From NCBI GenBank assembly GCA_039621445.1, contig CP154954.1:930001-994000 (forward strand): a stretch of DNA of 64,000 nucleotides, written 5' to 3'. Numbering within the stretch: the first letter of the stretch is position 1; each line of letters begins with the position of its first letter. This DNA comes from Euglena gracilis. Lineage: Eukaryota. This document shows, piece by piece, positions 34,491 through 64,000 of this stretch. The position numbers and the translations under genes were made by a program. The notes under the pieces were generated by a model. It was not told the DNA's origin. It did not search any database and saw only the letters and a list, made by a program, of their open reading frames with translations.

Positions 34491-35869
34491 ATGAATAAAA
34501 AAACTAACGAAAGGCCTGTATTTCCTTTTACTTCTATTGTTGGACAAAAAGAGATGTGTGGCTAAACACATTGCACATTCAAATAAAAAACTTAATAAAA
34601 TAATATTATAAATTTAAAAAATAATAATTATTATTATTAAAAATAATTACTACCCTCTAAACTACAATTAATAAATAAAAAATAAAACAAATTGGCAAAT
34701 AAAATACTGAATTTTCAACACAACTAAAAAAATTTTGTAAATTATTAAAATTTATTGTAGCTAATTGGAAGCAGTTTGGAAAACTATAGAAAATCCAAAA
34801 GAACATAAAATAACAATTTATAAATAAAAAACAAAGCTAAAAGGATAAACCACGTATAGTTTGAAAACAAATAAAATTTAGTTTTATGAAATTATCATTA
34901 ATCTTAAATGTAATAGATCCAAAAATAGGAGGTGTTATGATAATGGGTGATAGAGGAACAGGAAAGTCAACAATAGTTAGAGCGCTTGTTGACTTACTAC
35001 CACCTATTGATGTAATAGAAAACGACCCATATAATTCTGATCCATATGATACAGAATTAATGTCAGATGACGTTCTAGAAAAAATAAAAAAAAACGAAAA
35101 AGTATCGATAATTCAAGTTAAAACACCTATGGTTGATTTACCATTAGGTGCAACTGAAGATCGTGTTTGTGGAACAATAGATATAGAAAAAGCAATATCC
35201 GAAGGAAAAAAAGCATTCGAACCTGGTCTACTAGCACAAGCAAATAGAGGAATATTGTACGTTGATGAAGTTAACTTATTAGATGACCATTTAGTTGACG
35301 TTTTATTAGATTCCGCTGCTTCAGGATGGAACACGGTAGAAAGAGAAGGAGTTTCGATTTGCCATCCTGCAAGATTTATACTAGTAGGATCAGGAAATCC
35401 TGAAGAAGGAGAACTTAGACCACAATTACTAGATAGATTCGGAATGCATGCACAAATTAAAACACTAAAGGAACCAGCGCTTCGTGTAAAAATAGTACAA
35501 CAACGAGAACTATTTGAAAAAAGCCCTAAAGAGTTCAAAGAAAAATATAAGGAAGAACAAAATAAACTAATGGAAAAAATTATAAATGCAAGAAAAAAAT
35601 TAAAAAACATAATAATAAAATACGAACTTTTAGAAAAAATATCACAAATCTGTTCTGAACTAAATGTTGATGGACTAAGAGGAGATATGGTAACAAGTCG
35701 TGCAGCAAAAGCATTAGTAGCATTTGAAGATCGCACAGAAGTAACACCTAAAGACATTTTCACTGTAATTACGCTTTGTTTACGACATCGATTACGTAAA
35801 GACCCTTTAGAATCAATAGATTCGGGATATAAAGTGCAAGAAACCTTTAAAAAAGTGTTCAATTACTAA
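34491..35869 (+). CDS. chlI: Magnesium chelatase subunit I; exons 34491-34555 and 34888-35869; 332-nt group II intron
   Basis: [12 protein letters not shown], Walker [35 protein letters not shown]. Confidence 0.98.
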
Positions 35870-36029: not shown

Positions 36030-37579
36030 AAACTCTCGAAATAAAAAACGTTAATAAAAAAGTTGCAATATATATCTAGATTAAAATCAACGTCTTTTAT
36101 TTTGAAAAATGTTAAATTTATAACAAAATTTGAATAATGGAAAGTACCCAAAACGTGATGTCGTAGATTGAAATCTTACAAAACAATAGTTGATATTGAT
36201 TTTTTGTTTTTTACATAATTATGTAAAAATTTTATTATTAGTTAAAATAATAATATAGACTTTGAAAAATTATGAAACTAAAAAGAAAAAGTAAAATGTG
36301 AACTAGATTTACTTCTTAAAGACAAACTTATAGGTTTAAGCAAAAAACATTAGAAAAGCTAATTTTGAATTTTAAATTACTATTTATGGATAAAAGGAAA
36401 TTAAATTAATTCAAAATTTTGATTTTTAAAATGAATCTAATTTCAAATCATAAATTCTCTTGCAAAGTAATAATTTTAATGACTTGGATTACTTTTGAAA
36501 CGAACATGATTCACATTGTTTTCAAAATTTTTATTGTTTACTATATTGATGAGTATTGATGAGTTAACAAGATAAAACTATCTGGGTGTATAAAAAATAT
36601 CATAGAATAATAATTGAATAAAAATAAAATATTCTAAAACATATAATTTTCTGGAATTTACAAACTTTATTACAAAAAAGTGTACAACAGAATTATATAT
36701 ATACAAAAATTTATTTTTAAAAATATATAAATTATAACACTTTTAAAATTTTAATAGCTTCTTGAAAAATTTTAGTGACAGTAAAAAATAATAAAAACGC
36801 GTTTAATACATAATAACTACTATAAAGTATTTATATAGATTATTTTAAATCTTAAATAATCTATTATTATTACCTATTTTTGAAATAATATTAGTATAAA
36901 TATACATATTTAGTAATAAACTATTATCACAAATAGTGTAATCATTGTCATTTTCGTAAAATTTTAATTTCCAGCAACAAGCAAAATTTTGTTTAACAAA
37001 GCTTTTTGCCGATTAAACTAATACAAATAATTTACCCACATTTTTGATATAAAGAAGTATTACAAGAAGTACAGATGAATAAATCAAAAGTAGTTACAAA
37101 ATATTATTAATATTTAATACCTTACAATTAATTTTTAGTATTGTATTTATTCATAAAAAATGAGATCGAACTTTTAGAGTACAATCATTTAGTCTACCAT
37201 AATTATATATTAAGTAACTTGAATATGACGTTTCAGAAGAATAATAGCATAAGTGATTACAGGAATAATAATAATAAGTAAGATAATCTATCATCACGAA
37301 TAATAATCTAACATTGAATAAGAACAAGAATAATAGAAATTGAGAAAAACTCTATATATATATCTAGACATTTCTGTTTGTTTCTAAGTAAAATCCTACG
37401 AAACATACAATTTTATATTACATTAAATATGTAACTCATGTAAAAATATTGTTAGCTCTAAACATCTTCTATTTTTTCATTATATCATTTTTCTGAAAAA
37501 CCTATCTCTGATAATGAACTGTAATAATTAACTAACACTTATAAACTTTGTTTATCTTGAAATCTTAAACCTTAAAATA

Positions 37580-37850
37580 TTATCTTGGAAAGTAAACATC
37601 TTTTATCTGGCAGAAATAACCAACCAGTTCTTCCATCCGGACTTGACGTATGGATGGATTATGGATGGATACAACCTGATTGAGCAATAGAATCGAATCT
37701 AAGCATTTCCTCGGCAATGGGTTCACTTCCTTTTTACCCTTTAAGAAATTACGTATGCATTAGCCACACACATAGCTAAATAGAAAGCAGTTTGTGTGGT
37801 TCTTTGGATTACAATAAACGTTACGGAATTTAACCATAAAGTACTTAATA
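37580..37850 (-). pseudogene. Frameshifted paralog of the C-terminal part of ORF380
   Basis: LSTLWLNSVTFIVIQRTTQTAFYLAMCVANAYVIS* aligns with ORF380 LSTLWLTPRTFIVKRIVQTGFYLSMCVANAYAIA. Confidence 0.85.
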
Positions 37851-37886
37851 ATTAATAAATCAGGGTTAATAATCAATAAAAAACCA

Positions 37887-37989
37887 TAAGGCGTAGGTCT
37901 CCAAAACCTGATGTAGTAGGTTCGAATCCTACAAAGCGCGCTTTTAGTGTACACATTATAGTAAATGTGCCCCTTGCTTGGTCACCAAG
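37887..37989 (+). pseudogene. Orphan copy of the rRNA operon leader including a pseudo-tRNA-Trp 3' portion
   Basis: Matches 45031-45133 (TAAGGCGTAGGTCTCCAAAACC...GGTCACCAAG) but no 16S follows. Confidence 0.9.
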
Positions 37990-38025
37990 GGGACTGATGT
38001 AGAAAATATTCAGTAAAGACCATTT

Positions 38026-39097
38026 AAGTACATTGGTATATATAGTATATATAATATATATAAGTACATTAATATATAAGTACAGGTATATATAGTATAT
38101 ATACTATATATAAATACATTAATATATATAAGTACATTGGTATATATAGTATATATATATATAAGTACATTAATATATATACATTGGTATATATAGTATA
38201 TATAATATATATAAGTACATTAATATATAAGTACATTGGTATATATAGTATATATATATATATAAGTACATTAATATATATAAGTACATTGGTATATATA
38301 GTAATATATATAAGTACATTAGTATATATAAGTACATTGGTATATATAGTATATATAATATATAGAAGTACATTAATATAAATAAGTACATTGGTATATA
38401 TAGTCTCTATAATATATATAAGTACATTAATATATAAGTACATTGGTATATCGTATATAATATAATAGTACATTAATATATAAGTACATTGGTATATAGT
38501 ATATATAATATATATAAGTACATTAATATATATAAGTACATTGGTATATAGTATATATAATATATATAAGTACATTAATATATATAAGTACATTGGTATA
38601 TAGTATATATAATATATATAAGTACATTATATATATAAGTACATTGGTATATATAGTATATATAATATATATAAGTACATTAATATATATACATTGGTCT
38701 ATAGTATATATAATATATATAAGTACATTATATATATAAGTACATTGGTATATATAGTATATATATATATAAGTACATTAATATATAAGTACATTGGTAT
38801 ATATAGTATATAATAATATAAGTACATTAATATATATAAGTACATTGGTATATAGTATAATATATATATAAGTACATTAATATATTATATTGGTATATAT
38901 ATATATATATATATAAGTACATTTATATATAAGTACATTGGTATATAGTATATATAATATATAAGTACATTAATATATAAGTACATTGGTATATATGTCT
39001 CTTATATAGTCCCTTATCTCTCTAGTACATTGGTATCTCTCTAGTATAGTACATTGGTTATATAGTATATAAGTACATTGTTATATATAAGTACATA
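38026..39097. repeat. VNTR of ~54-bp AT-rich units (AGTACATTGGTATATA...AGTACATTAATATATA); likely replication-origin region
   Basis: Alternating AGTACATTGG / AGTACATTAA cores separated by (TA)n; strand skew flips across it. Confidence 0.95.
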
Positions 39098-39321
39098 CCT
39101 CTTTATTCTTGGGTTTTTTGCAAAATTACTTCGGGAATTTTTTGCATTTAACCTACAATGCAATTAAAATATAGTTATTGATATATATTCAATGATCTAT
39201 TTTTTTTTTGTATTTTTTTTAGTTTGATTAAGAATTATTATTTTTTTATTTTTTATGACACATTCATAGAAATAGGTAAAGAAAATTAAAAGCAAAAAAA
39301 ACGATTTCTTATATTCATTTT

Positions 39322-40464
39322 ATGATTTTTACGATGTATTTCTTTAGAAATTTTGTTTTTTTACACTCTTTTATGAACTATATAATTAAAGTAAAATCTA
39401 TTTTAATTAATCGATATTCGTTGGCTACCTGCAATGCAATTTTATTGTATTTTTTTCAAACAAATTATTATAAAATTTATTTGTTAGTTAATACTAGTTT
39501 ATCTTTTTACAATTTAATTTTTTTCCTTAGGAATTTTCTAAGGATAGTAAAAAAAAAAAACGATCCAAAAGTTTTTCTTTTGGCTTTATTGATAATTTCG
39601 AAAAATTATATCCAATATGCGCTTTACTGTAATTTTTTGTTTCAAGTTGGTAACAGAACATTAAAAGTAATCAAGTCCGTTGAAATTTCTAAAAATGAAA
39701 TTTTGAAAAACGACCCTTCGTTGAAGGCTTTGGAGTTTTGGAAAAAAATTAAAATATTTTATAGTAAGAATTTTATTTCCAAAATTGCCGTAATTATGGT
39801 AATTAGTTTTTCTGGTTATTGCGCATTTAATTTTGCATTTAAATTTTTTGGTGTACTTAAAGAATCTTCAAAAATCTTGGCTTCTTTTTTCTCTTTTAAT
39901 CATGATCAAAAAAATGATAATTCTGAAGACAATCGTTCCGAAGATGATTTAAAGTCAAGTCAAGACCCAGTAAATATTCCTTCTATCGAACAAAGTTTCA
40001 AAGTTGAAGATTTTTCAATTTTCAATCCTGATTTTTGGTCAACTGATTTTGATAAAATTTTATTGGAAGAGGGTTATGACCTAGAGGGTTCATTAAGCAC
40101 TTTATGGTTAACTCCAAGAACATTTATTGTGAAAAGGATCGTGCAAACTGGTTTCTATTTAAGTATGTGTGTAGCTAATGCATATGCAATTGCTGAAACC
40201 GTAAAAAGAGGTCAGCCGGTTAGCAATGATATGTTACAATTTAATCCGACTTTGCAAACAGGATTTGTCTACCCATACGGGCAGTCAATGTCAGCACCCG
40301 GTCAAATACCTGGGGGGAATTTGGGCCGAACGTTTGTTCCTGAAGAAAAAATGTTTACTTCACAAGATCTAGCAGTTTCATCCAACTGTAATGTGGGGGA
40401 TGGATTTGTTGAGGTTATAGAAATCCCATTTAATTATTATAAGGATGCATTACCCCCCGAGTAA
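39322..40464 (+). CDS. Hypothetical protein ORF380 (hydrophobic N-half, acidic linker, C-terminal domain shared with the pseudogene at 37.6-37.85 kb)
   Basis: 1.14-kb open frame; paralog conserved at protein level supports coding status; start uncertain. Confidence 0.7.
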   Translation: MIFTMYFFRNFVFLHSFMNYIIKVKSILINRYSLATCNAILLYFFQTNYYKIYLLVNTSLSFYNLIFFLRNFLRIVKKKNDPKVFLLALLIISKNYIQYALYCNFLFQVGNRTLKVIKSVEISKNEILKNDPSLKALEFWKKIKIFYSKNFISKIAVIMVISFSGYCAFNFAFKFFGVLKESSKILASFFSFNHDQKNDNSEDNRSEDDLKSSQDPVNIPSIEQSFKVEDFSIFNPDFWSTDFDKILLEEGYDLEGSLSTLWLTPRTFIVKRIVQTGFYLSMCVANAYAIAETVKRGQPVSNDMLQFNPTLQTGFVYPYGQSMSAPGQIPGGNLGRTFVPEEKMFTSQDLAVSSNCNVGDGFVEVIEIPFNYYKDALPPE

Positions 40465-40473
40465 TATTCCTTT

Positions 40474-41388
40474 CTATTTTCGATTTCAAAGAAAAATATC
40501 AATATATTAAATTTTTTATGTATTAAATAACTTGATACATAATTATTAGTAGTCACTACGTTTTTTATACGTAATATTATTTCTTTAACACATGGTTTTT
40601 TATATAAAAATAGGTCAATTTTTTTTATTATTTTTTTTAGAAAAAAAAAAATGCTTTGTAGACTATGTGGTAACTACATTTCAGTATCGTAATTAGTACG
40701 ACAGCTCGAATTTGGGTTTTGCAATTTTTTTTTTTCATTTTTTTTTTTTTTTTTTGCAAATAGGGGGGGTTGTTCTAAAATTCGGTGATTTTATTTATGG
40801 GAGATTTTTATGCATTCAATAGTGCCGGGTAAAAATTGGCATGTTTTGATTAAGACAGGATTCGGTAGTTTTGAGGATTTTAACTTATTATTCATCAAAA
40901 AAATCAATTTCTTACATTTTATTTATTATTTTTATTATTTATTTATTCATAAAATTTATTTTTTTCTTTAAGCAAAACTGTGTTATTTTTTTTGCTTATA
41001 TATTTTTCCTTGATTCCAGAGTTCTTGCAATTTACTTCGGGATTTTTTAAAATTTAACCTACAACGAAATTGTAGTTAAGATATATTTTAATGATCTATT
41101 TTTTTATATTTTTTAAAAAGTTGTTATTTGTTATTATTTTTTTTTTCAATTAAGATTTTTATATTTTTCACACTCATTTTTTTTAAAAAAAATTATTATT
41201 ATAGAAAAAAAAATCCTTAATTGGTAACGTTGTGATTATGTTACTTCATCGTAGTGGGTCGCAAGTTCGAATTGAAGGTTTGCAATTTTTTTTTTCATTT
41301 TTTTTTTTTTTTTTTTTTATGGAGATATGGGAGTTTGAGGTTTTTAAAAAATGATTTATTTTTTTATTTATGGGAGATTTTATTATGT
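40474..41388 (+). repeat. ~915-bp direct repeat, copy 1
   Basis: Near-identical to 41745-42658. Confidence 0.92.
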
Positions 41389-41717
41389 TTTATTTTATGT
41401 GCTCAATGGTTCCCGAAAGGGATTATCAAAAATTAATGGAAGATAAAAAGGAATTAGAAAGAAATGATTATCCTATTTTTTTTTTTTTTTAACCTAATGA
41501 TCAACTTTTTAGTTGGGAAGATGTTGTTCTGAGAAACGAAATTGCTGAAAAACGTCGCAGAAAACAGTATGGCGAATCATATGAATATGATTCTAAGCAA
41601 AGAGAAAAGCAATTTTATGAGTTTATTGAAAAATTTCTTGAGGAAAAAGGAGTTGAGTTACCGCGTAACTTATACACAGATAATACTATTATAGAAATGC
41701 AAAAAACGGAGGAGTAA
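41370..41717 (+). pseudogene. Internally deleted, frameshifted paralog of ORF351
   Basis: MGDFIM..SMVP start joined to EDKKELERND...NDQLF (cf. ORF351 EEKKELEIND...NDQFL), then a different tail. Confidence 0.7.
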
Positions 41718-41744
41718 AAAAATTACCTCTGATGTCAATACATA

Positions 41745-42658
41745 CTATTTTCGATTTCAAAGAAAAATATCAATATATTAAATTTTTTATGTATTAAATA
41801 ACTTGATACATAATTATTAGTAGTCACTACGTTTTTTATACGTAATATTATTTCCTTAACACATGGTTTTTTATATAAAAATAGGTCAATTTTTTTTATT
41901 ATTTTTTTAGAAAAAAAAAAATGCTTTGTAGACTATGTGGTAACTACATTTCAGTATCGTAATTAGTACGACAGCTCGAATTTGGGTTTTGCAATTTTTT
42001 TTTTCATTTTTTTTTTTTTTTTTGCAAATAGGGGGGGGTTGTTCTAAAATTCGGTGATTTTATTTATGGGAGATTTTTATGCATTCAATAGTGCCGGGTA
42101 AAAATTGGCATGTTTTTATTAAGACAGGATTCGGTAGTTTTGAGGATTTTAACTTATTATTCATCAAAAAAAGCAATTTCTTACATTTTATTTATGATTT
42201 TTAGGATGTATTTATTCAGAAAATTTATTTTTTTCTTTAAGCAAAACTGTGTTATTTTTTTTGCTTATATATTTTTCCTTGATTCCAGAGTTCTTGCAAT
42301 TTACTTCGGGATTTTTTAAAATTTAACCTACAACGAAATTGTAGTTAAGATATATTTTAATGATCTATTTTTTTATATTTTTTAAAAAGTTGTTATTTGT
42401 TATTATTTTTTTTTTCAATTAAGATTTTTATATTTTTCACACTCATTTTTTTTTAAAAAAATTATTATTATAGAAAAAAAATCCTTAATTGGTAACGTTG
42501 TGATTATGTTACTTCATCGTAGTGGGTCGCAAGTTCGAATTGAAGGTTTGCAAATTTTTTTTTTCATTTTTTTTTTTTTTTTTGCATAATGGAGATATGG
42601 AAGTTTGAGGTTTTCAAAAAATGATTTATTTTTTTATTTATGGGAGATTTTATTATGT
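41745..42658 (+). repeat. ~915-bp direct repeat, copy 2 (ends in the ORF351 start)
   Basis: Near-identical to 40474-41388. Confidence 0.92.
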
Positions 42659-43695
42659 ATTCAATGGTTCCAGGAAAAAACTGGCATGTTTTTATTAAAA
42701 CAGGGTTCGGTAGTTTTGAGGATTTTAACTTATTATTCATCAAAAAGTGGAAAGAGTTAATTAATTATAACTCTATTTCTTTTATTATTTATGGTTTTGA
42801 TTTGTCTGAAAATAATTTAAACAACTTTTGTGAAGTGACTATAGAGGTCTATATAGAATTTAATAAAAATTACCGAAGGCATGGTCTTAAAAAATTATTT
42901 TCTTTTGAAAAAAATTCTGTTATTGTAGAAAAGGGATCGAGTAGTAAAACTTCACTTGATAATTTTTTTTCTAAAACAGGGAATAAAAACATTGAAGTTT
43001 GTTGGTCAGGTGTTCCAAGGTTTGAAAATGGTTTAAAAAATTCTTTAAGTTTTGATTTTGTTATTAAAAATAATTTATTAAGTCGTGCGCGAAAAGATCA
43101 TTGTTTTCCTTCGTTTTTTTCTAAATTGATTTCCAATTCCTCAGAAAATTATTTAAAAGTGAAAGAAAAAATAACAGAAGAGAAAAAGGAATTAGAAATA
43201 AATGATTCTAATAATTTTTTACACGATCATTTTAATGTTTTGAAAGCTAATGATCAATTTTTAAACATCATTGAAAAATATATAATAGAGTACAAAAATT
43301 TGTTTTTTTTAACGAGTAAAAACGATGCAATAAAACTTCGTTCTATGTTGTTGAAGTATATATCTGAAGTCGCAGTATTAGAAAATAGTATCTCAAATTC
43401 TAATATTTCTAATATTTTTTTATTTAAGCAAGCTTCTAAGTTTTATAAACATAATTCTTTAAAAAACGATAATTATAAAAACTGGGATTTTAACTGGATT
43501 TTTGTGGAAATGCTTCTTATTTTTTTTCTAGAAAAAGCAAAAAATAAAAAAATTGATAAATTTGAATTATATACTTTAGTGAACAAAGAAATTTATGGTG
43601 AAGAACAGTTAGATATAATGGTTAAAAACTTTAGAAAAAGAGCTTGTGAAAATGTCGATTTACGGCAGATTCGGTCTTCATTGCCTTGTTTTTGA
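42640..43695 (+). CDS. ORF351; N-terminal ~125 aa resemble a degenerate circovirus/nanovirus-type Rep HUH domain; likely start ATG 42655
   Basis: Open frame; KNWHVFI, FIIYGFD, TIEVYIEFNKNYRRHGLKKLF, IVEKGSSS...NFFSKTG...WSGVP spaced like Rep motifs I-III (by eye). Confidence 0.65.
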   Translation: MGDFIMYSMVPGKNWHVFIKTGFGSFEDFNLLFIKKWKELINYNSISFIIYGFDLSENNLNNFCEVTIEVYIEFNKNYRRHGLKKLFSFEKNSVIVEKGSSSKTSLDNFFSKTGNKNIEVCWSGVPRFENGLKNSLSFDFVIKNNLLSRARKDHCFPSFFSKLISNSSENYLKVKEKITEEKKELEINDSNNFLHDHFNVLKANDQFLNIIEKYIIEYKNLFFLTSKNDAIKLRSMLLKYISEVAVLENSISNSNISNIFLFKQASKFYKHNSLKNDNYKNWDFNWIFVEMLLIFFLEKAKNKKIDKFELYTLVNKEIYGEEQLDIMVKNFRKRACENVDLRQIRSSLPCF

Positions 43696-43716
43696 TTTTT
43701 ATATAGGGAGAAAAGT

Positions 43717-43914
43717 ATGACAAAAAAAGAAGAAAAAAATTTAAATAATACAAAAATCAATTTAACAGTAAAAAAAATTTATAAAAAATATTGTTCTTAT
43801 AAAGCACAATATGATGAAAAAACCTGGACCAAAAATTTAGTTGAAAGCTTTTTTTTTTTTATCATTGAAAATGGGCATATTTTAAACGTAGTAGAAGTAG
43901 AATATTTTTCTTAA
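43717..43914 (+). CDS. Small hypothetical ORF (65 aa), possibly truncated
   Basis: GGGAG upstream of ATG, 21 nt after the ORF351 stop. Confidence 0.3.
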   Translation: MTKKEEKNLNNTKINLTVKKIYKKYCSYKAQYDEKTWTKNLVESFFFFIIENGHILNVVEVEYFS

Positions 43915-44087
43915 AGCGTGTCAAAAAAATCGATTAATTAAAATATAGTGTCATGGAAAATGTGATTATTCTATCACTTATTTAAATATGCTTTTTTATC
44001 AATGTCAATTTGTAGAATAATTGGCGTTTTTTTTGATGGAGTATAGTGAGTTTGCCTACTTTTTACCTTATTAAATTAATAAATTTA

Positions 44088-44998
44088 AAATTGACTTATT
44101 AAAAACTTATAGGGAGTAAATATTAAGGAAGTACCTTATCAGGATTTTGATAAGTATTCTCACTATTGAGGTTAAATATGGATTAGTTGATTATGCGTTA
44201 GTACGAGAATTTCATAGAACAGGTGGACCCTCATGTGCATTCGTATTTTATTAAAGAAGTCGATACTAAATTGGCAAATTTTTTCGATATATCTATTGAT
44301 TCTAAAATTTATAGGCCAGAGTTAACAATGAGAAAGATTTGCTCGACTATTTAATAAAACAAATATTTAACTTTGTGGATGCTTCAGAAAATTTCATGGC
44401 TTCGGAATCAATTCTTAAAAAATATGGTAAATATTTTCAATATCTTCCTTTGGAAGAAAGGATGATTGAATTAGTGAAAAAAGGGGACATAGAAAATGCT
44501 ATGTTACTGTTTGAAAAAGAAAAACCTTCAGAATTTGTATATAAGGGCGACGCTATTGAACGTCAATTAAGAAACATATATTTAAGTACGAGATTAGGTG
44601 TGAAATAAAAAATTAATTTTAATGAATACATAATACCCAAAGACTTAAGGTGGATGTTGGATATTTATGAATCCCATCTAAATATGGGTAAAAATAAGGT
44701 ATTTTTAATTTTAGGCAGTGAACATAGATATTTAATCGATTTTTTCGAATCTTATTTGCAATTTAAAGGCTTTTATCCTTTAGTAGTTAAGAAATCCAAG
44801 GATTTACTGAAATTAAACAATACTTATCATTATGATGCGATAATTTTTGTCAACTCAAATATCCTTGAATATCAAAATGTAAATGAGATAAAAAACATGT
44901 TCAACTCTTTAGAAACGACGTTAACTGCTTATTATGGAATATCTTTGATAAAGGTAGGGTCGTGGATTAAAGCCTTTCGTTCAACTTGCATGTGTTAA
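44088..44998 (+). pseudogene. Disrupted geminivirus-like rolling-circle Rep (HUH endonuclease, linker, degenerate SF3-like region)
   Basis: VREFHRTG/DPHVHSY, ANFFDI...YRP, DYLIK, AMLLFEKEKPSEFV, F..Y.IP..L.W, YDAIIF in the expected order across two frameshifts and one stop. Confidence 0.75.
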
Positions 44999-45084
44999 GC
45001 ATAGCTAAATATTGCTTTTCGTTAAAATTGTAAGGCGTAGGTCTCCAAAACCTGATGTAGTAGGTTCGAATCCTACAAAGCGCG
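44936..45084 (+). pseudogene. rRNA leader 1 with pseudo-tRNA-Ile and pseudo-tRNA-Trp fragments
   Basis: CTTTGATAAAGGTAGGGTCG resembles trnI anticodon arm; CTCCAAA loop and T-arm of trnW at 45031-45084. Confidence 0.8.
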
Positions 45085-45165
45085 CTTTTAGTGTACACAT
45101 TATAGTAAATGTGCCCCTTGCTTGGTCACCAAGAGGGTGAAAGGATTTGACCAACTTTGATGTTT

Positions 45166-45909
45166 TGGAAATGACGAGTTTGATCCTTGCTCAGGGTGAA
45201 CGCTGGCGGTATGCTTAACACATGCAAGTTGAACGAAATTACTAGCAATAGTAATTTAGTGGCGGACGGGTGAGTAATATGTAAGAATCTGCGCTTGGGT
45301 GAGGAATAACAGATGGAAACGTTTGCTAATGCCTCATAATTTACTAGATCTATGTGAGTAGCTAGTTAAAGAGAATTTCGCCTAGGCATGAGCTTGCATC
45401 TGATTAGCTTGTTGGTGAGGTAAAGGCTTACCAAGGCGACGATCAGTAGCTGATTTGAGAGGATGATCAGCCACACTGGGATTGAGAACGGAACAGACTT
45501 TTACGGAAGGCAGCAGTGAGGAATTTTCCGCAATGGGCGCAAGCCTGACGGAGCAATACCGCGTGAAGGAAGAAGGCCTTTGGGTTGTAAACTTCTTTTC
45601 TCAAAGAAGAAGAAATGACGGTATTTGAGGAATAAGCATCGGCTAATTCCGTGCCAGCAGCCGCGGTAATACGGGAGATGCGAGCGTTATCCGGAATTAT
45701 TGGGCGTAAAGAGTTTGTAGGCGGTCAAGTGTGTTTAATGTTAAAAGTCAAAGCTTAACTTTGGAAGGGCATTAAAAACTGCTAGACTTGAGTATGGTAG
45801 GGGTGAAGGGAATTTCCAGTGTAGCGGTGAAATGCGTAGAGATTGGAAAGAACACCAATGGCGAAGGCACTTTTCTAGGCCAATACTGACGCTGAGAAAC
45901 GAAAGCTGA

Positions 45910-46183: not shown

Positions 46184-46235
<52 letters not shown>

Positions 46236-49992: not shown

Positions 49993-50867
49993 TGGGAAGT
50001 TTAATTTATTTAATTGTCTCTTAGTGAGTTTATTTATTAATATTAACTCGATTTTCGAGTAATTTTTATGACTGCCGTTACGTTAGTGTTTTATTGCATG
50101 GATAAATGTATTGTGGTATAATTAAACCAAGGAATTTGTCAAACCACGTTTCCTTTAAGTTTGAATTTTTTTTGGCCAAAACATGATGCTTCCGAAAAAA
50201 TAAGACAATCTGTTTATAGAAATCAGTGAATTTCGTAATATTTTTCTTTTAAAATTTTAAACGATATGAATAATATCCTCGAGTGTTTGGAAAATGACTA
50301 TGTTTCTTCGCTAATATAAAAGATTAATCACAAAATTCAACAAGATAGGTTGAATCATAGTGAGAATATTAGGTAATCTTCTGATAAGAGTTTTATTTTG
50401 TTGTACATTATAGTTATTGCTACTTTGTATTTGGTTCTTTGTGTTATGTGTGTGCTTTTTAGTTGTAAATTTTTTGCTAGTAAGAAGCGTGTCGTTCATT
50501 GTCGATTTGGACGAATATTTATAAAATGCTACAAGAGACCAAAATGTCTTTATACTTCTTATATTGCTGCTGAGTACCCTATATTTTGTGATATTGAAAA
50601 ATATTAAGGTAAGGTTCCTAGACTTTCATACGTAAATGCTCATGCGCACAGTTTAGGTGTTATGCTTTTATCCCTGATCTTGTGAATTCTTTTCATTCAC
50701 AAGAAATAACTTAGCTTAATTCCTAGTGTAAATTTTTCCGTACTTTAACGTGTGGCTGGGACAATTTTTTTATTTTTAATTAAAATACCGTATAAATTTT
50801 AAAAAATAAAAAAATCAAAAGGAAAATTTTTTATTTTTCAAAGATCACTATTATCTTTTATTATTAT

Positions 50868-50995
50868 AGAATACCTTTGATAAGGGTAGGGTCGTGGATT
50901 GAATCCTTGTATTAGCCAAATATTTCTTTTCTTTAAAATCCTAAGGCGTAGGTCTCCAAAACCTGATGTAGTAGGTTCGAATCCTACAAAGCGCG
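50868..50995 (+). pseudogene. rRNA leader 2 with pseudo-trnI and pseudo-trnW fragments
   Basis: ATACCTTTGATAAGGGTAGGGTCG; trnW 3' part at 50942-50995. Confidence 0.8.
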
Positions 50996-55912: not shown

Positions 55913-56787
55913 TGGGAAGTTTAATTTATTTAATTGTCTCTTAGTGAGTTTATTTATTAATATTAACTCGATTTTCGAGTAATTTTTATGACTGCCGTTA
56001 CGTTAGTGTTTTATTGCATGGATAAATGTATTGTGGTATAATTAAACCAAGGAATTTGTCAAACCACGTTTCCTTTAAGTTTGAATTTTTTTTGGCCAAA
56101 ACATGATGCTTCGGAAAAAATAAGACAATCTGTTTATAGAAATCAGTGAATTTCGTAATATTTTTCTTTTAAAATTTTAAACGATATGAATAATATCCTC
56201 GAGTGTTTGGAAAATGACTATGTTTCTTCGCTAATATAAAAGATTAATCACAAAATTCAACAAGATAGGTTGAATCATAGTGAGAATATTAGGTAATCTT
56301 CTGATAAGAGTTTTATTTTGTTGTACATTATAGTTATTGCTACTTTGTATTTGGTTCTTTGTGTTATGTGTGTGCTTTTTAGTTGTAAATCTTTTGCTAG
56401 TAAGAAGCGTGTCGTTCATTGTCGATTTGGACGAATATTTATAAAATGCTACAAGAGACCAAAATGTCTTTATACTTCTTATATTGCTGCTGAGTACCCT
56501 ATATTTTGTGATATTGAAAAATATTAAGGTAAGGTTCCTAGACTTTCATACGTAAATGCTCATGCGCACAGTTTAGGTGTTATGCTTTTACCCCTGATCT
56601 TGTGAATTCTTTTCATTCACAAGAAATAACTTAGCTTAATTCCTAGTGTAAATTTTTCCGTACTTTAACGTGTGGCTGGGACAATTTTTTTATTTTTAAT
56701 TAAAATACCGTATAAATTTTAAAAAATAAAAAAATCAAAAGGAAAATTTTTTATTTTTCAAAGATCACTATTATCTTTTATTATTAT

Positions 56788-56915
56788 AGAATACCTTTGA
56801 TAAGGGTAGGGTCGTGGATTGAATCCTTGTATTAGCCAAATATTTCTTTTCTTTAAAATCCTAAGGCGTAGGTCTCCAAAACCTGATGTAGTAGGTTCGA
56901 ATCCTACAAAGCGCG
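56788..56915 (+). pseudogene. rRNA leader 3 with pseudo-trnI and pseudo-trnW fragments
   Basis: Same as leader 2. Confidence 0.8.
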
Positions 56916-58756: not shown

Positions 58757-60677
58757 GTTCAAATGAACAAGGGCTTATGCGGGATTGCTTGGCATTTAGA
58801 GTCGAAGAAGGGCGTAGAAATTAACGATATGCTTTAGGGAGCTAAAGACGAGCTTTAATCTAAAGATTCCCGAATGGGGCAACCTATTACTTTAACATTA
58901 CAATGAAATGGTATACAAATAATGTAGAGAACTTGGTGAACTGAAACATCTTAGTAGCCGAAGGAAAAGAAAGCAAAAGCGATTTTCTTATTAGTGGCGA
59001 GCTAACGGAAATCAGCCTAAACCTTTATGGGTGTTGTGGGTATATTATAATTACTGAAAAAGATAGAGAATTTGTTGAAAACAAAATCAAAGAGGGTTTT
59101 AAATCCCGTATTTGTTTTTAAAAAGTAATTTTTGATTTTCCCGAGTAGCATAGAGCACGTGGAATTCTGTGTGAATCAGCGAGGACCATCTCGTAAGGCT
59201 AAATACTCCTAAATGACCGATAGTGTACGAGTACCGTGAGGGAAAGCTGAAATAGAACACTGAGAAGTGAGTGAAATAGAATATGAAAGCATAAGTTTAC
59301 AAGCAGTAGGAGATCTATTTAAAGATTGACTGTGTGCCTGTTGAAGAATGAGCCGGCGACTTATAGGTGATGGCAAGGTTAAGGTTTTTCCGGAGCCATA
59401 GTGAAATCGAGCTTAAATAAAGCGAAAAACTTTCTTCTTGAAAGTTTATGTCATTGCTTATAGACCCGAACCCAGGTGATCTAATCATGGTCAGGTTGAA
59501 GTTTTGGTAAAACAGAATGGAGGACCGAACCCACCAATGTTGAAAAATTGGGGGATGAACTGTGATTAGGGGAGAAATTCCAATCGAACTTGGAGCTAGC
59601 TGGATCTCTTCGAAATGCGTTGAGGCGCAGCGTTTAATTATGGTAAACATTAGGGGTAAAGCACTGTTTCGATGCGGGCTATGAAAATGGTACCAAGTTG
59701 TGGCAAACTCTGAATACTAAGTTATATTTCAATTAATCAGTGAGACAGTGGGGGATAAGCTTCATTGTCAAGAGGGAAACAGCCCAGATCACTACTTAAG
59801 GCCCCTAAATAATTACTAAGTGGTAAAGGATGTACTATTACATAGACAACCAGGAGGTTGGCTTAGAAGCAGCCATTCCTTTAAAAAGTGCGTAATAGCT
59901 TACTGGTCAAGTGATAGTGCGCCGAAAATGAACGGGACTAAGTAATTTGCCGAAGGTGTGAGAGAAATCGGTAGAAGAGCGTTCTGTGTTGAAGAGAAGG
60001 AATAGTGAAAATAGTTCTGGATTAAACAGAAGTGAGAATGTCGGCTTAAGTAACGAAAACATTGGTGAAAATCCTATGCTCCGAAAACCTAAGGTTTCCT
60101 TAGCCAGGTTCGTCCTCTAAGGGTTAGTCAGGTCCTAAAATAAGGTTTAACAACGTAAATTGATGGATGACAGGTTAATATTCCTGTACCGAATGCTCAC
60201 TTGTAAGGAGTGACGAAAAAGGCTAGATCGGCCACGTGATGGTTTGTGGTTTAAGGGTTCAAGAGGTATCAAATATTAAAAAAAATATTTTGTCTTAAGG
60301 CCTGAATAGTATAAATACTACGGTATTGAAAGTGATTGATGTCATGTTTCCAAGAAAAACTTTTGTTTATGTATAGTGAGCTCGCCTGTACCGTAAACTG
60401 ACACAGGTAGGTTAGTAGAATATACTAAGGAGCGCGAGATAACTCTTTCTAAGGAACTCGGCAAAATGACTTCGTAACTTCGGAAGAAGAAGTACCTCTA
60501 ATGAGGTGGCAGAAAAGAGGTCCAAGCGACTGCTTACCAAAAGCACAGGTCTCCGCGAAGTTGAAAAACGATGTATGGGGGCCGAGGCCTGCTCAGTGCA
60601 GGAAGGTTAAAGAAATTGGTTAGCGTAAGCAAAGCTAGTGACTGAAGCCCCTGTGAACAGCGGCAATAACTATAATT

Positions 60678-60730
<53 letters not shown>

Positions 60731-61217
60731 TTAACGATTTGGACACTGTCTCAGAAAGAGACTCGGTGAAATAGAATTGACTGTGAAGATGCGGTCTACT
60801 TGCACTTGGACAGAAAGACCCTATGAAGCTTTACTGTATCCTGAAATTGGTTTCGGGCTTTTTTGCGCAGAATAGGTGGGAGGCTATGATCTTGTCTTTT
60901 GGGATACGGGGAGCCGAAAAATGAGATACCACTCTGAGAAAGCTAGAAATCTAATCTTAATCTTATGTACAATCATGATAATTGACAGTTTCAGGTGGGC
61001 AGTTTTACTGGGGCGGTAGCCTCCTAAAAAGTAACGGAGGCGTACAAAGGTTTTCTCAGGCTAGACGGAAATTAGTTGTGGAGTGTAAAGGCATAAGAAA
61101 GCTTGACTGTGAGACTTATAAGTCAAACAGAGACTAAAGTCGGTCTTAGTGACCCGACGGTGCTGTATGGAAAGGCCGTCGTAAACAGATAAAAGTTACT
61201 CTAGGGATAACAGGCTG

Positions 61218-61277
<60 letters not shown>

Positions 61278-61294
61278 ACCTGGGGCGGTAGTAC

Positions 61295-61329
<35 letters not shown>

Positions 61330-61462
61330 TACGTGAGCTGGGTTCAGAACGTCGAGAGACAGTTCGGTCCATATCCGGTGTGAGCGTTAGAGTATTGAAA
61401 GGCGCTTTCCTTAGTACGAGAGGACCGGGAAGGACGCACCACTGAGGTACCAGTTTTTGTGC
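58757..61462 (+). rRNA. rrl: 23S rRNA, operon 3, truncated ~180 nt before its 3' end
   Basis: Matches other copies up to CAGTTTTTGTGC, then switches to the inverted copy. Confidence 0.93.
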
Positions 61463-61567
61463 GTCCTTCCCGGTCCTCTCGTACTAAGGAAAGCGCCTTT
61501 CAATACTCTAACGCTCACACCGATATGGACCGAACTGTCTCTCGACGTTCTGAACCCAGCTCACGTA

Positions 61568-61602
<35 letters not shown>

Positions 61603-61619
61603 GTACTACCGCCCCAGGT

Positions 61620-61679
<60 letters not shown>

Positions 61680-62167
61680 CAGCCTGTTATCCCTAGAGTA
61701 ACTTTTATCTGTTTACGACGGCCTTTCCATACAGCACCGTCGGGTCACTAAGACCGACTTTAGTCTCTGTTTGACTTATAAGTCTCACAGTCAAGCTTTC
61801 TTATGCCTTTACACTCCACAACTAATTTCCGTCTAGCCTGAGAAAACCTTTGTACGCCTCCGTTACTTTTTAGGAGGCTACCGCCCCAGTAAAACTGCCC
61901 ACCTGAAACTGTCAATTATCATGATTGTACATAAGATTAAGATTAGATTTCTAGCTTTCTCAGAGTGGTATCTCATTTTTCGGCTCCCCGTATCCCAAAA
62001 GACAAGATCATAGCCTCCCACCTATTCTGCGCAAAAAAAGCCCGAAACCAATTTCAGGATACAGTAAAGCTTCATAGGGTCTTTCTGTCCAAGTGCAAGT
62101 AGACCGCATCTTCACAGTCAATTCTATTTCACCGAGTCTCTTTCTGAGACAGTGTCCAAATCGTTAA

Positions 62168-62220
<53 letters not shown>

Positions 62221-64000
62221 AATTATAGTTATTGCCGCTGTTCACAGGGGCTTCAGTCACTAGCTTTGCTTACGCTAACCAATTTCTTTAACCTTCCTGC
62301 ACTGAGCAGGCCTCGGCCCCCATACATCGTTTTTCAACTTCGCGGAGACCTGTGCTTTTGGTAAGCAGTCGCTTGGACCTCTTTTCTGCCACCTCATTAG
62401 AGGTACTTCTTCTTCCGAAGTTACGAAGTCATTTTGCCGAGTTCCTTAGAAAGAGTTATCTCGCGCTCCTTAGTATATTCTACTAACCTACCTGTGTCAG
62501 TTTACGGTACAGGCGAGCTCACTATACATAAACAAAAGTTTTTCTTGGAAACATGACATCAATCACTTTCAATACCGTAGTATTTATACTATTCAGGCCT
62601 TAAGACAAAATATTTTTTTTAATATTTGATACCTCTTGAACCCTTAAACCACAAACCATCACGTGGCCGATCTAGCCTTTTTCGTCACTCCTTACAAGTG
62701 AGCATTCGGTACAGGAATATTAACCTGTCATCCATCAATTTACGTTGTTAAACCTTATTTTAGGACCTGACTAACCCTTAGAGGACGAACCTGGCTAAGG
62801 AAACCTTAGGTTTTCGGAGCATAGGATTTTCACCAATGTTTTCGTTACTTAAGCCGACATTCTCACTTCTGTTTAATCCAGAACTATTTTCACTATTCCT
62901 TCTCTTCAACACAGAACGCTCTTCTACCGATTTCTCTCACACCTTCGGCAAATTACTTAGTCCCGTTCATTTTCGGCGCACTATCACTTGACCAGTAAGC
63001 TATTACGCACTTTTTAAAGGAATGGCTGCTTCTAAGCCAACCTCCTGGTTGTCTATGTAATAGTACATCCTTTACCACTTAGTAATTATTTAGGGGCCTT
63101 AAGTAGTGATCTGGGCTGTTTCCCTCTTGACAATGAAGCTTATCCCCCACTGTCTCACTGATTAATTGAAATATAACTTAGTATTCAGAGTTTGCCACAA
63201 CTTGGTACCATTTTCATAGCCCGCATCGAAACAGTGCTTTACCCCTAATGTTTACCATAATTAAACGCTGCGCCTCAACGCATTTCGAAGAGATCCAGCT
63301 AGCTCCAAGTTCGATTGGAATTTCTCCCCTAATCACAGTTCATCCCCCAATTTTTCAACATTGGTGGGTTCGGTCCTCCATTCTGTTTTACCAAAACTTC
63401 AACCTGACCATGATTAGATCACCTGGGTTCGGGTCTATAAGCAATGACATAAACTTTCAAGAAGAAAGTTTTTCGCTTTATTTAAGCTCGATTTCACTAT
63501 GGCTCCGGAAAAACCTTAACCTTGCCATCACCTATAAGTCGCCGGCTCATTCTTCAACAGGCACACAGTCAATCTTTAAATAGATCTCCTACTGCTTGTA
63601 AACTTATGCTTTCATATTCTATTTCACTCACTTCTCAGTGTTCTATTTCAGCTTTCCCTCACGGTACTCGTACACTATCGGTCATTTAGGAGTATTTAGC
63701 CTTACGAGATGGTCCTCGCTGATTCACACAGAATTCCACGTGCTCTATGCTACTCGGGAAAATCAAAAATTACTTTTTAAAAACAAATACGGGATTTAAA
63801 ACCCTCTTTGATTTTGTTTTCAACAAATTCTCTATCTTTTTCAGTAATTATAATATACCCACAACACCCATAAAGGTTTAGGCTGATTTCCGTTAGCTCG
63901 CCACTAATAAGAAAATCGCTTTTGCTTTCTTTTCCTTCGGCTACTAAGATGTTTCAGTTCACCAAGTTCTCTACATTATTTGTATACCATTTCATTGTAA
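61459..64000 (-). rRNA. rrl: Inverted (fold-back) partial 23S rRNA mirroring 58898-61439
   Basis: Reverse complement of the preceding 23S up to the window end. Confidence 0.93.

Follow-up and report, generated by a model that had tools for sequence, protein, structure and literature searches.

An interval of about 7.1 kb in Euglena gracilis plastid DNA, lying between two copies of an rRNA-leader segment (at 37887 and 45031) and including a variable-number tandem repeat (VNTR), is best read as a chromosomal duplication hot-spot that carries relics of virus- or plasmid-derived Rep (replication initiator) genes. The window, meaning the whole stretch of 64,000 nucleotides analysed (contig CP154954.1, 930,001 to 994,000), has the gene content of an E. 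gracilis-type plastome: chlI, trnL-CAA, the VNTR, and three tandem rRNA operons; the database names of a close paralog of one of its genes point to the same source. Two Rep genes from virus- or plasmid-like circles probably entered the lineage and lost their catalytic activity, and parts of them were copied again within a spacer next to the rRNA array that is prone to recombination. Descent from rolling-circle replicons of the CRESS (circular Rep-encoding single-stranded DNA) or HUH class is well supported for orf351 and moderately supported for a second, broken gene at 44120–44923. The initial annotation had suggested that the whole interval may derive from an integrated plasmid- or virus-like element. 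The Rep ancestry of two open reading frames (ORFs) upholds one part of that proposal; the other part, integration at a tRNA 3′ half, is not supported, and the interval yielded neither an integrase nor a nick-site hairpin.

The firmer case is orf351 (42640–43695, forward strand). Its 351-codon frame is directly seen to be intact, and over 42717–43695 no indel or substitution is listed in four public sequencing runs. Residues ~9–130 are predicted to adopt the HUH/CRESS Rep endonuclease fold, with neither the HUH nor the catalytic tyrosine motif; the rest is partly predicted to be helical. The AlphaFold2 model on which this prediction stands covers residues 1–200, used a nine-sequence alignment containing no known Rep, and has a pLDDT (predicted local distance difference test) of 79. 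Foldseek against the PDB gave eight matches at E≤0.001, and all eight are CRESS Rep domains; the BFVD search gave 293 at the same threshold, and among the 50 listed every named one is a Rep. In the VIA comparison a nanovirus Rep came first (Z 9.6; root-mean-square deviation 2.4; 94 residues aligned), followed by circovirus Reps at 9.5 and 9.1. Each of the top 14 ranks goes to a Rep or to an origin-binding domain derived from one, and unrelated folds reach Z ≤6.3. The Atlas language model placed residues 35–135 with Viral_Rep clusters at 0.90–0.91, a score to be read with the caveats that 4–10% of shuffles reach 0.9 and that the scale has no calibration on protein parts.

Profile tests concur with the model, the three fold searches, and the Atlas result; orf351 is the first of the two Rep-like sequences noted in the initial annotation. 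When 281 segments of the window were scored with a circovirus-type profile (53 non-redundant domains, drawn from 94 of 133 loci), orf351 came out on top. Conversely, a profile of the orf351 family scored above 5 bits on 11 of the 53 natural circovirus-type domains, versus 1 of 530 shuffles. By hhalign, the family and 30 of the 53 domains aligned over 101 columns (P 0.0018; probability 15%).

Several points weigh against Rep ancestry. The circovirus-type seed motif overlaps four orf351 residues and inflates both the profile and the hhalign tests, which are therefore not fully independent. The hhalign probabilities are low (15% for the orf351 family, 4% for the second gene). Pfam matched no piece or relative to a Rep family, and sequence searches of the PDB turned up no Rep either. 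Plasmid searches likewise gave no Rep match. Read most sceptically, the resemblances are convergent: orf351 would have no more than a generic alpha/beta sandwich fold, and the broken gene would be an ordinary orphan. The lack of Pfam support and the low hhalign probabilities speak for convergence, as do ribosomal S6-type folds that reach VIA Z 6.3; nevertheless, Reps and their origin-binding derivatives occupy the first 14 VIA ranks and all significant PDB Foldseek ranks, the language-model and profile tests agree, and the second gene has colinear matches of its own. We consider convergence very unlikely.

The whole orf351 protein had no relative among 2474 word-sharing candidates; relatives came only from a full phmmer scan (eight at E≤0.001) and from a profile search, and two were added to the first eight. 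They are 27–37% identical. Several lie on contigs of 0.9–9 kb, one on a contig of 15,263 nt, and one on a contig of 71,871 nt. Neither the HUH nor the Walker A pattern occurs in any of 13 proteins, namely orf351 and P0001–P0012, the last of these being the intact paralog of the second gene; this absence is itself a direct observation. In the hhalign alignment to circovirus-type Reps, the positions of the motif II histidine and the motif III tyrosine are filled by other residues in the orf351 family. Some relatives do contain YxxK strings, which are not assigned to the catalytic position. The tail of orf351 was not a superfamily 3 (SF3) helicase in any test run.

Orf351 and its relatives seem to have kept the predicted fold and lost the metal-binding and tyrosine residues, which most likely makes them non-cutting DNA-binding proteins. 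Because the fold appears to have been kept at 27–37% identity in the absence of catalytic motifs, and because an intact 351-codon frame stands among decayed copies, selection for non-cutting DNA binding is suggested. Possibly orf351 is kept as a DNA-binding protein. Just beyond orf351, all four public runs carry single-base homopolymer differences at 43816 and 43849; the window therefore probably misrenders the 65-aa ORF at 43717–43914.

The same family might instead be an undescribed organellar plasmid family that is still mobile, with the dead Rep domain as an accessory and the plastome copy as a neutral recent insert. Its diverse members, several of them on contigs of only 0.9–9 kb, would suit such a family, and plasmid-derived ORFs are known from red-algal plastomes (PMC4814812). 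Relatives also sit on the 71,871-nt and 15,263-nt contigs, however, and searches of limited sensitivity found none in viral contigs, plasmids, or prokaryote genomes; a mobile family is distinctly unlikely. A point against the reading preferred here is that no DNA context for the relatives was found in viral, metagenome, or prokaryote contigs, so that they are no more than putative plastid genes.

The second Rep-like gene (44120–44923, forward strand) is a broken, 3′-truncated sequence that resembles a geminivirus-type Rep. It survives as open pieces at 44120–44251, 44202–44351, and 44315–44605, and from 44609 onward. Along 44120–44995 the pieces begin with an RExH..G stretch and an HUH-like motif; next come an FFD stretch and a YxxK-like motif, and last a part that resembles the oligomerisation domain of geminivirus Reps. 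The motif names follow PMC6668415 in part. The breaks and the truncation are directly visible, and the breaks are real because the stretch is covered by four public runs of four studies and no indel is listed there. A search with a single piece matched an intact E. gracilis protein, P31919 (281 aa), as well as a 333-aa member from var. bacillaris; P31919 is plainly named for another locus, 'rbcL-atpE intergenic region'. The window copy and the intact paralog (P0012) are 81% identical over 212 aa, and the identity ends at ~44923. Since homology to the rRNA leader begins at 44929, inside a pseudo-trnI, about 105 codons have evidently been replaced by leader. The annotated intact paralog begins after motif II, and only the broken gene carries the HUH-like motif.

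An N-terminal profile whose seeds were chosen by the helicase motif alone (39 of 66 sequences) was run over 281 segments of the window. Three second-gene pieces took ranks 1, 3, and 4 and followed the order of the profile, and their chain scored 8.4 bits versus 3.2 for the best other place. The intact paralog scored 7.3 bits against the same profile, equalled by 2 of 1000 shuffles. By hhalign it was colinear with 12 Reps over 210 columns (P 0.01; probability 4%). The two Rep-like families did not align with each other (P 0.41), nor did the second gene match circovirus-type Reps (P 0.45); they are therefore treated as distinct families. A frameshift-tolerant score of 29 bits, reached by none of 450 shuffles, was dropped as circular, its seeds having been picked by a motif read from the window.

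Other results count against a Rep origin for this gene. When 117 Reps from 124 loci were compared directly by tblastn, the best E was only 0.079. Masking the seed motif (profile from 29 of 117 sequences) left scores equalled by 13 of 200 and by 13–14 of 300 shuffles, and the region fell outside the top 8 of 146 tiles. A helicase-half profile (30 of 86 sequences) did not score it. The single-sequence model of 44609–44995 has a pLDDT of 46, and fold searches with it were uninformative. On balance, homology of this gene to Rep is probable. The second Rep-like sequence of the initial annotation is thus moderately confirmed, by colinear profile matches and the hhalign P value on one side and against weak tblastn and masked scores on the other.

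The repeat that brackets the interval has a different explanation. Its two copies, 37887–37992 and 45031–45136, both on the forward strand, extend over 106 nt in direct orientation with a single mismatch, 7144 nt apart. So far the initial annotation described it correctly. Direct comparison finds the repeat in four copies, one before each of the three 16S genes and one preceding the VNTR, all with the same truncated starting point. The left copy differs from those at 45031, 50942, and 56862 at 1, 3, and 1 positions; it is equally close to the copies of the first and third operons. It is an orphan leader piece, made of the 3′ part of pseudo-trnW plus ~50 nt and directed into the VNTR. The right copy belongs to the first rRNA operon (Rfam tRNA match 45012–45084, 37.4 bits). 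Pseudo-tRNAs in the rRNA leaders, and a pseudo-trnW beside the VNTR, are reported in papers of the 1980s. None of the four copies is an intact tRNA, and ARAGORN called no intact tRNA at 37887 or 45031.

Nor does the repeat coincide with the borders of foreign-looking DNA. The leader homology of the first operon begins at 44929–44963 (forward strand), inside pseudo-trnI; the junction between broken gene and leader falls at 44924–44929, and the right repeat copy starts ~100 nt beyond it. On the other side, a broken inverted paralog of the C-terminal half of orf380 (37582–37849, reverse strand) lies outside the left copy and is not bracketed by the repeat. Because a target-site repeat should abut its insert, an attachment site is poorly supported here. 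Pfam matched no integrase or recombinase in the two ORFs of more than 300 aa in the interval or in the smaller pieces scanned. The rolling-circle nonanucleotide shows no excess (28 core matches, 23 expected), and neither of the two hairpins found outside the VNTR contains it; a nick-site hairpin was not found.

It is highly improbable, then, that 37887–45030 is one integrated element with attachment-like repeats that excises as a 7.1-kb replicon. Such an element would account for the near-identical direct repeats, its circle would hold the VNTR and both Rep-like genes, and HUH-like and YxxK-like motifs do persist in the broken gene. It is disfavoured by a repeat that is a four-copy rRNA leader with no intact tRNA at either end; by a junction ~100 nt off on the right and a paralog beyond the left copy; by the lack of a recombinase in the two long ORFs, of any nonanucleotide excess, and of nonanucleotides in the hairpins; and by the lack of a catalytically complete Rep. 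Integration at a tRNA 3′ half is unsupported on the grounds of the tRNA, the repeat, its borders, and the missing integrase, and because the intact paralog is named for another locus. The 106-nt repeat is ordinary rRNA leader and probably not the scar of an excisable element. This negative outcome matters in that the repeat should not be taken for an attachment site.

A circle of 7.1 kb could still arise passively. In that case the region would be chromosomal, and homologous recombination between leader copies would occasionally free an origin-bearing circle. Such a circle is geometrically possible: near-identical direct repeats flank the VNTR, and dispersed duplications attest to recombination in the region. 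However, 106 nt is short for this purpose, no bridging contig appears among those listed, and depth shows no excess over the single copy expected (a weak point). The listed contigs from public runs end inside the 106-nt repeat. In run X1, contigs reach a depth of 18 across the Rep genes but 53 at the start of 16S, and X8 and X15 give ratios that are similar or higher. In these three runs the Rep genes have about one third to one fifth of the depth found at the 16S start, although by the tool's own warning contig depth is no copy number, and X2 is dominated by rRNA of other organisms. These depths fit, weakly, one copy of the interval per genome. Passive loop-out is unlikely. One X1 contig matches pseudo-trnW to its 3′ end (45084) and then diverges; it probably stems from the genuine trnW locus, beyond the window.

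Duplication within the interval is plain from direct comparison. A 921-nt unit occurs twice on the forward strand: the first copy, 40474–41391, contains upstream modules and truncated orf351 starts at 40797 and 41370; the second, 41745–42661, is 97.6% identical and runs into the start of orf351. The orf351 start motif has four copies (40797, 41370, 42066, and 42640), and two of the start copies carry the first 34 codons at 82–85% identity. A broken orf351 paralog with an internal deletion occupies 41370–41714 (forward strand), where 41428–41482 is 84% identical to 43166–43220. Some of the duplicated modules are shared with the region upstream of orf380, an orphan ORF (39322–40464, forward strand) for which Pfam gave no lead and the best Atlas score was 0.75, over residues 225–380; neither pointed to a capsid gene. 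The inverted paralog outside the left leader copy matches 40092–40368 at 66% over 282 columns (E 3e-29); at the protein level it is 64% identical over 36 aa, with a stop. The shuffled upstream modules of the initial annotation are therefore real, and their sequences are best read as the 5′ region of orf351 copied several times over.

These observations suggest how the interval may have formed. Separate Rep genes of CRESS viruses or plasmids would have entered the plastid lineage by ordinary, non-site-specific recombination. The orf351 family would have retained its fold and dropped the tyrosine and the residues that bind metal. Close to the rRNA array, unequal crossing-over and conversion may then have copied the orf351 5′ module, an orf380 fragment, an ORF281-type gene, and a piece of leader. 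As they stand today, neither Rep-like gene is expected to be capable of initiating rolling-circle replication.

The neighbourhood lends the surviving protein a possible role. The VNTR exists as the initial annotation described it: TRF finds 58 copies of period 16–18 at 38025–38996 (score 761), and the AT-rich tract, with 37 core units, extends over 38025–39100 (forward-strand numbering). The origin passage of PMC3308993 places the E. gracilis plastid origin within tandem repeats ~6 kb upstream of a 16S gene. Because the first 16S gene starts at 45168, this placement fits the VNTR at 38025–39000, and the statement that the origin lies near the VNTR agrees with it. As of 2012, according to the same paper, the E. 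gracilis plastid genome was without any proposed replication model. The cumulative GC-skew minimum is a point against so close a placement: it lies at 34724, ~3 kb to the left of the VNTR, with a plateau to ~38000, and the skew supports the origin neighbourhood rather than an exact point. Between trnL(CAA) and the inverted orf380 paralog, 36050–37400 is a very AT-rich stretch of 1.3 kb with no long ORF and no match to either Rep-like family.

An orf351 family member with a predicted origin-binding type of fold adjoins a mapped origin. If ORF351 binds DNA as its modelled fold suggests, the adjoining VNTR would be the preferred target. A stronger proposal, which for now we hold as doubtful, is that a captured CRESS Rep (the orf351 family) serves as a non-cutting origin-recognition protein beside the VNTR, with the geminivirus-type Rep of the ORF281 family as its partner. 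Were that true, initiation of plastid replication would rest on plastid-encoded, virus-derived proteins, a parallel to papillomavirus E1 and SV40 large T.

Some features of the leaders and the rRNA array deserve record. If the leader contains the rRNA promoter, the orphan copy at 37887–37992 would drive transcripts into the VNTR, where they might serve as replication primers. A promoter scan was at chance level (60 versus 65), and no leader site was among those listed. A short hairpin lies just 3′ of pseudo-trnW at 45085–45120 and in the other three leaders; only the 50942 copy pairs perfectly over 9 bp. The first leader alone has, at 44975–45003, a 29-nt exact inverted copy of 16S positions 45210–45238; in the precursor transcript, base-pairing between this copy and the 5′ part of 16S is conceivable. 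The leaders at 50738–50894 and 56658–56814 hold a 71% copy of the 16S–trnI spacer and trnI. Near 46230 the first 16S copy has 9 nt fewer than the second and four substitutions, either a real variant or an assembly error; two substitutions in the first 16S are read differently by several public runs. Finally, 58898–64000 is a perfect fold-back (99.7%) with its tip near 61460 in the third 23S gene. An error of assembly or of the reads is its most probable cause, and the rRNA that appears inverted there should be treated with suspicion.

With these results, two long-unexplained orphan ORF families gain a candidate ancestry in replication proteins of single-stranded DNA viruses, which points to such viruses, or plasmids, reaching a secondary plastid. 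A literature search, in which older and subscription literature was thinly covered, found no publication that connects ORFs of the Euglena plastid with Rep proteins.

Several known systems invite comparison. Integrative elements that target tRNA genes leave attL and attR, and the interval resembles them in its direct repeats with a tRNA 3′ part; it differs in having no intact tRNA or integrase, and in a repeat that is off the borders and common to every rRNA operon. The CRESS Rep endonuclease (Viral_Rep PF02407; nanovirus 6H8O; circovirus 7KII and 8H56) is like orf351 residues ~9–130 in predicted fold and in the positions of motifs I–III. Unlike it, orf351 has no HUH motif, catalytic tyrosine motif, or Walker A motif, its tail was not an SF3 helicase in the tests run, and it is encoded by the plastid chromosome.

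The origin-binding domains of papillomavirus E1 and SV40 large T are non-cutting derivatives of the HUH fold. They belong to the same fold family as the orf351 model (VIA Z 7.5 and 6.8), but each is part of a protein that also contains an SF3 helicase. In structure the orf351 model is nearer to circovirus and nanovirus Reps, and the DNA target of orf351 is putative.

The broken gene was compared with the geminivirus-type Reps treated in PMC6668415: those of geminiviruses, genomoviruses, CRESSV6, phytoplasma pCRESS9, and Porphyra pulchra plasmids. In the broken gene and its paralog, motif II, the FFD stretch after it, motif III, and the oligomerisation region appear to follow one another in the same order and at the same distances as in these Reps. 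The two genes differ from them in an identity of only ~13%, in lacking Walker A, in the breaks and truncation of the window copy, and in an annotated paralog that starts after motif II; the subgroup is left unassigned.

The closest precedents are plasmid- or virus-derived ORFs of organelles: the red-algal plasmid replicases and the Phytophthora sojae mitochondrial orf98 described in PMC4814812, a paper whose main text does not contain the string 'Euglen'. The replicases agree with the statement in the initial annotation that Rep-encoding plasmids occur in algae. As in those algal and oomycete cases, the E. gracilis genes are Rep-related, of apparently viral origin, fragmented and duplicated, and located in or beside an organelle genome. 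In contrast to them, the Euglena genes reside in a secondary plastid, belong in the case of orf351 to a whole family without catalytic motifs, and adjoin a mapped origin.

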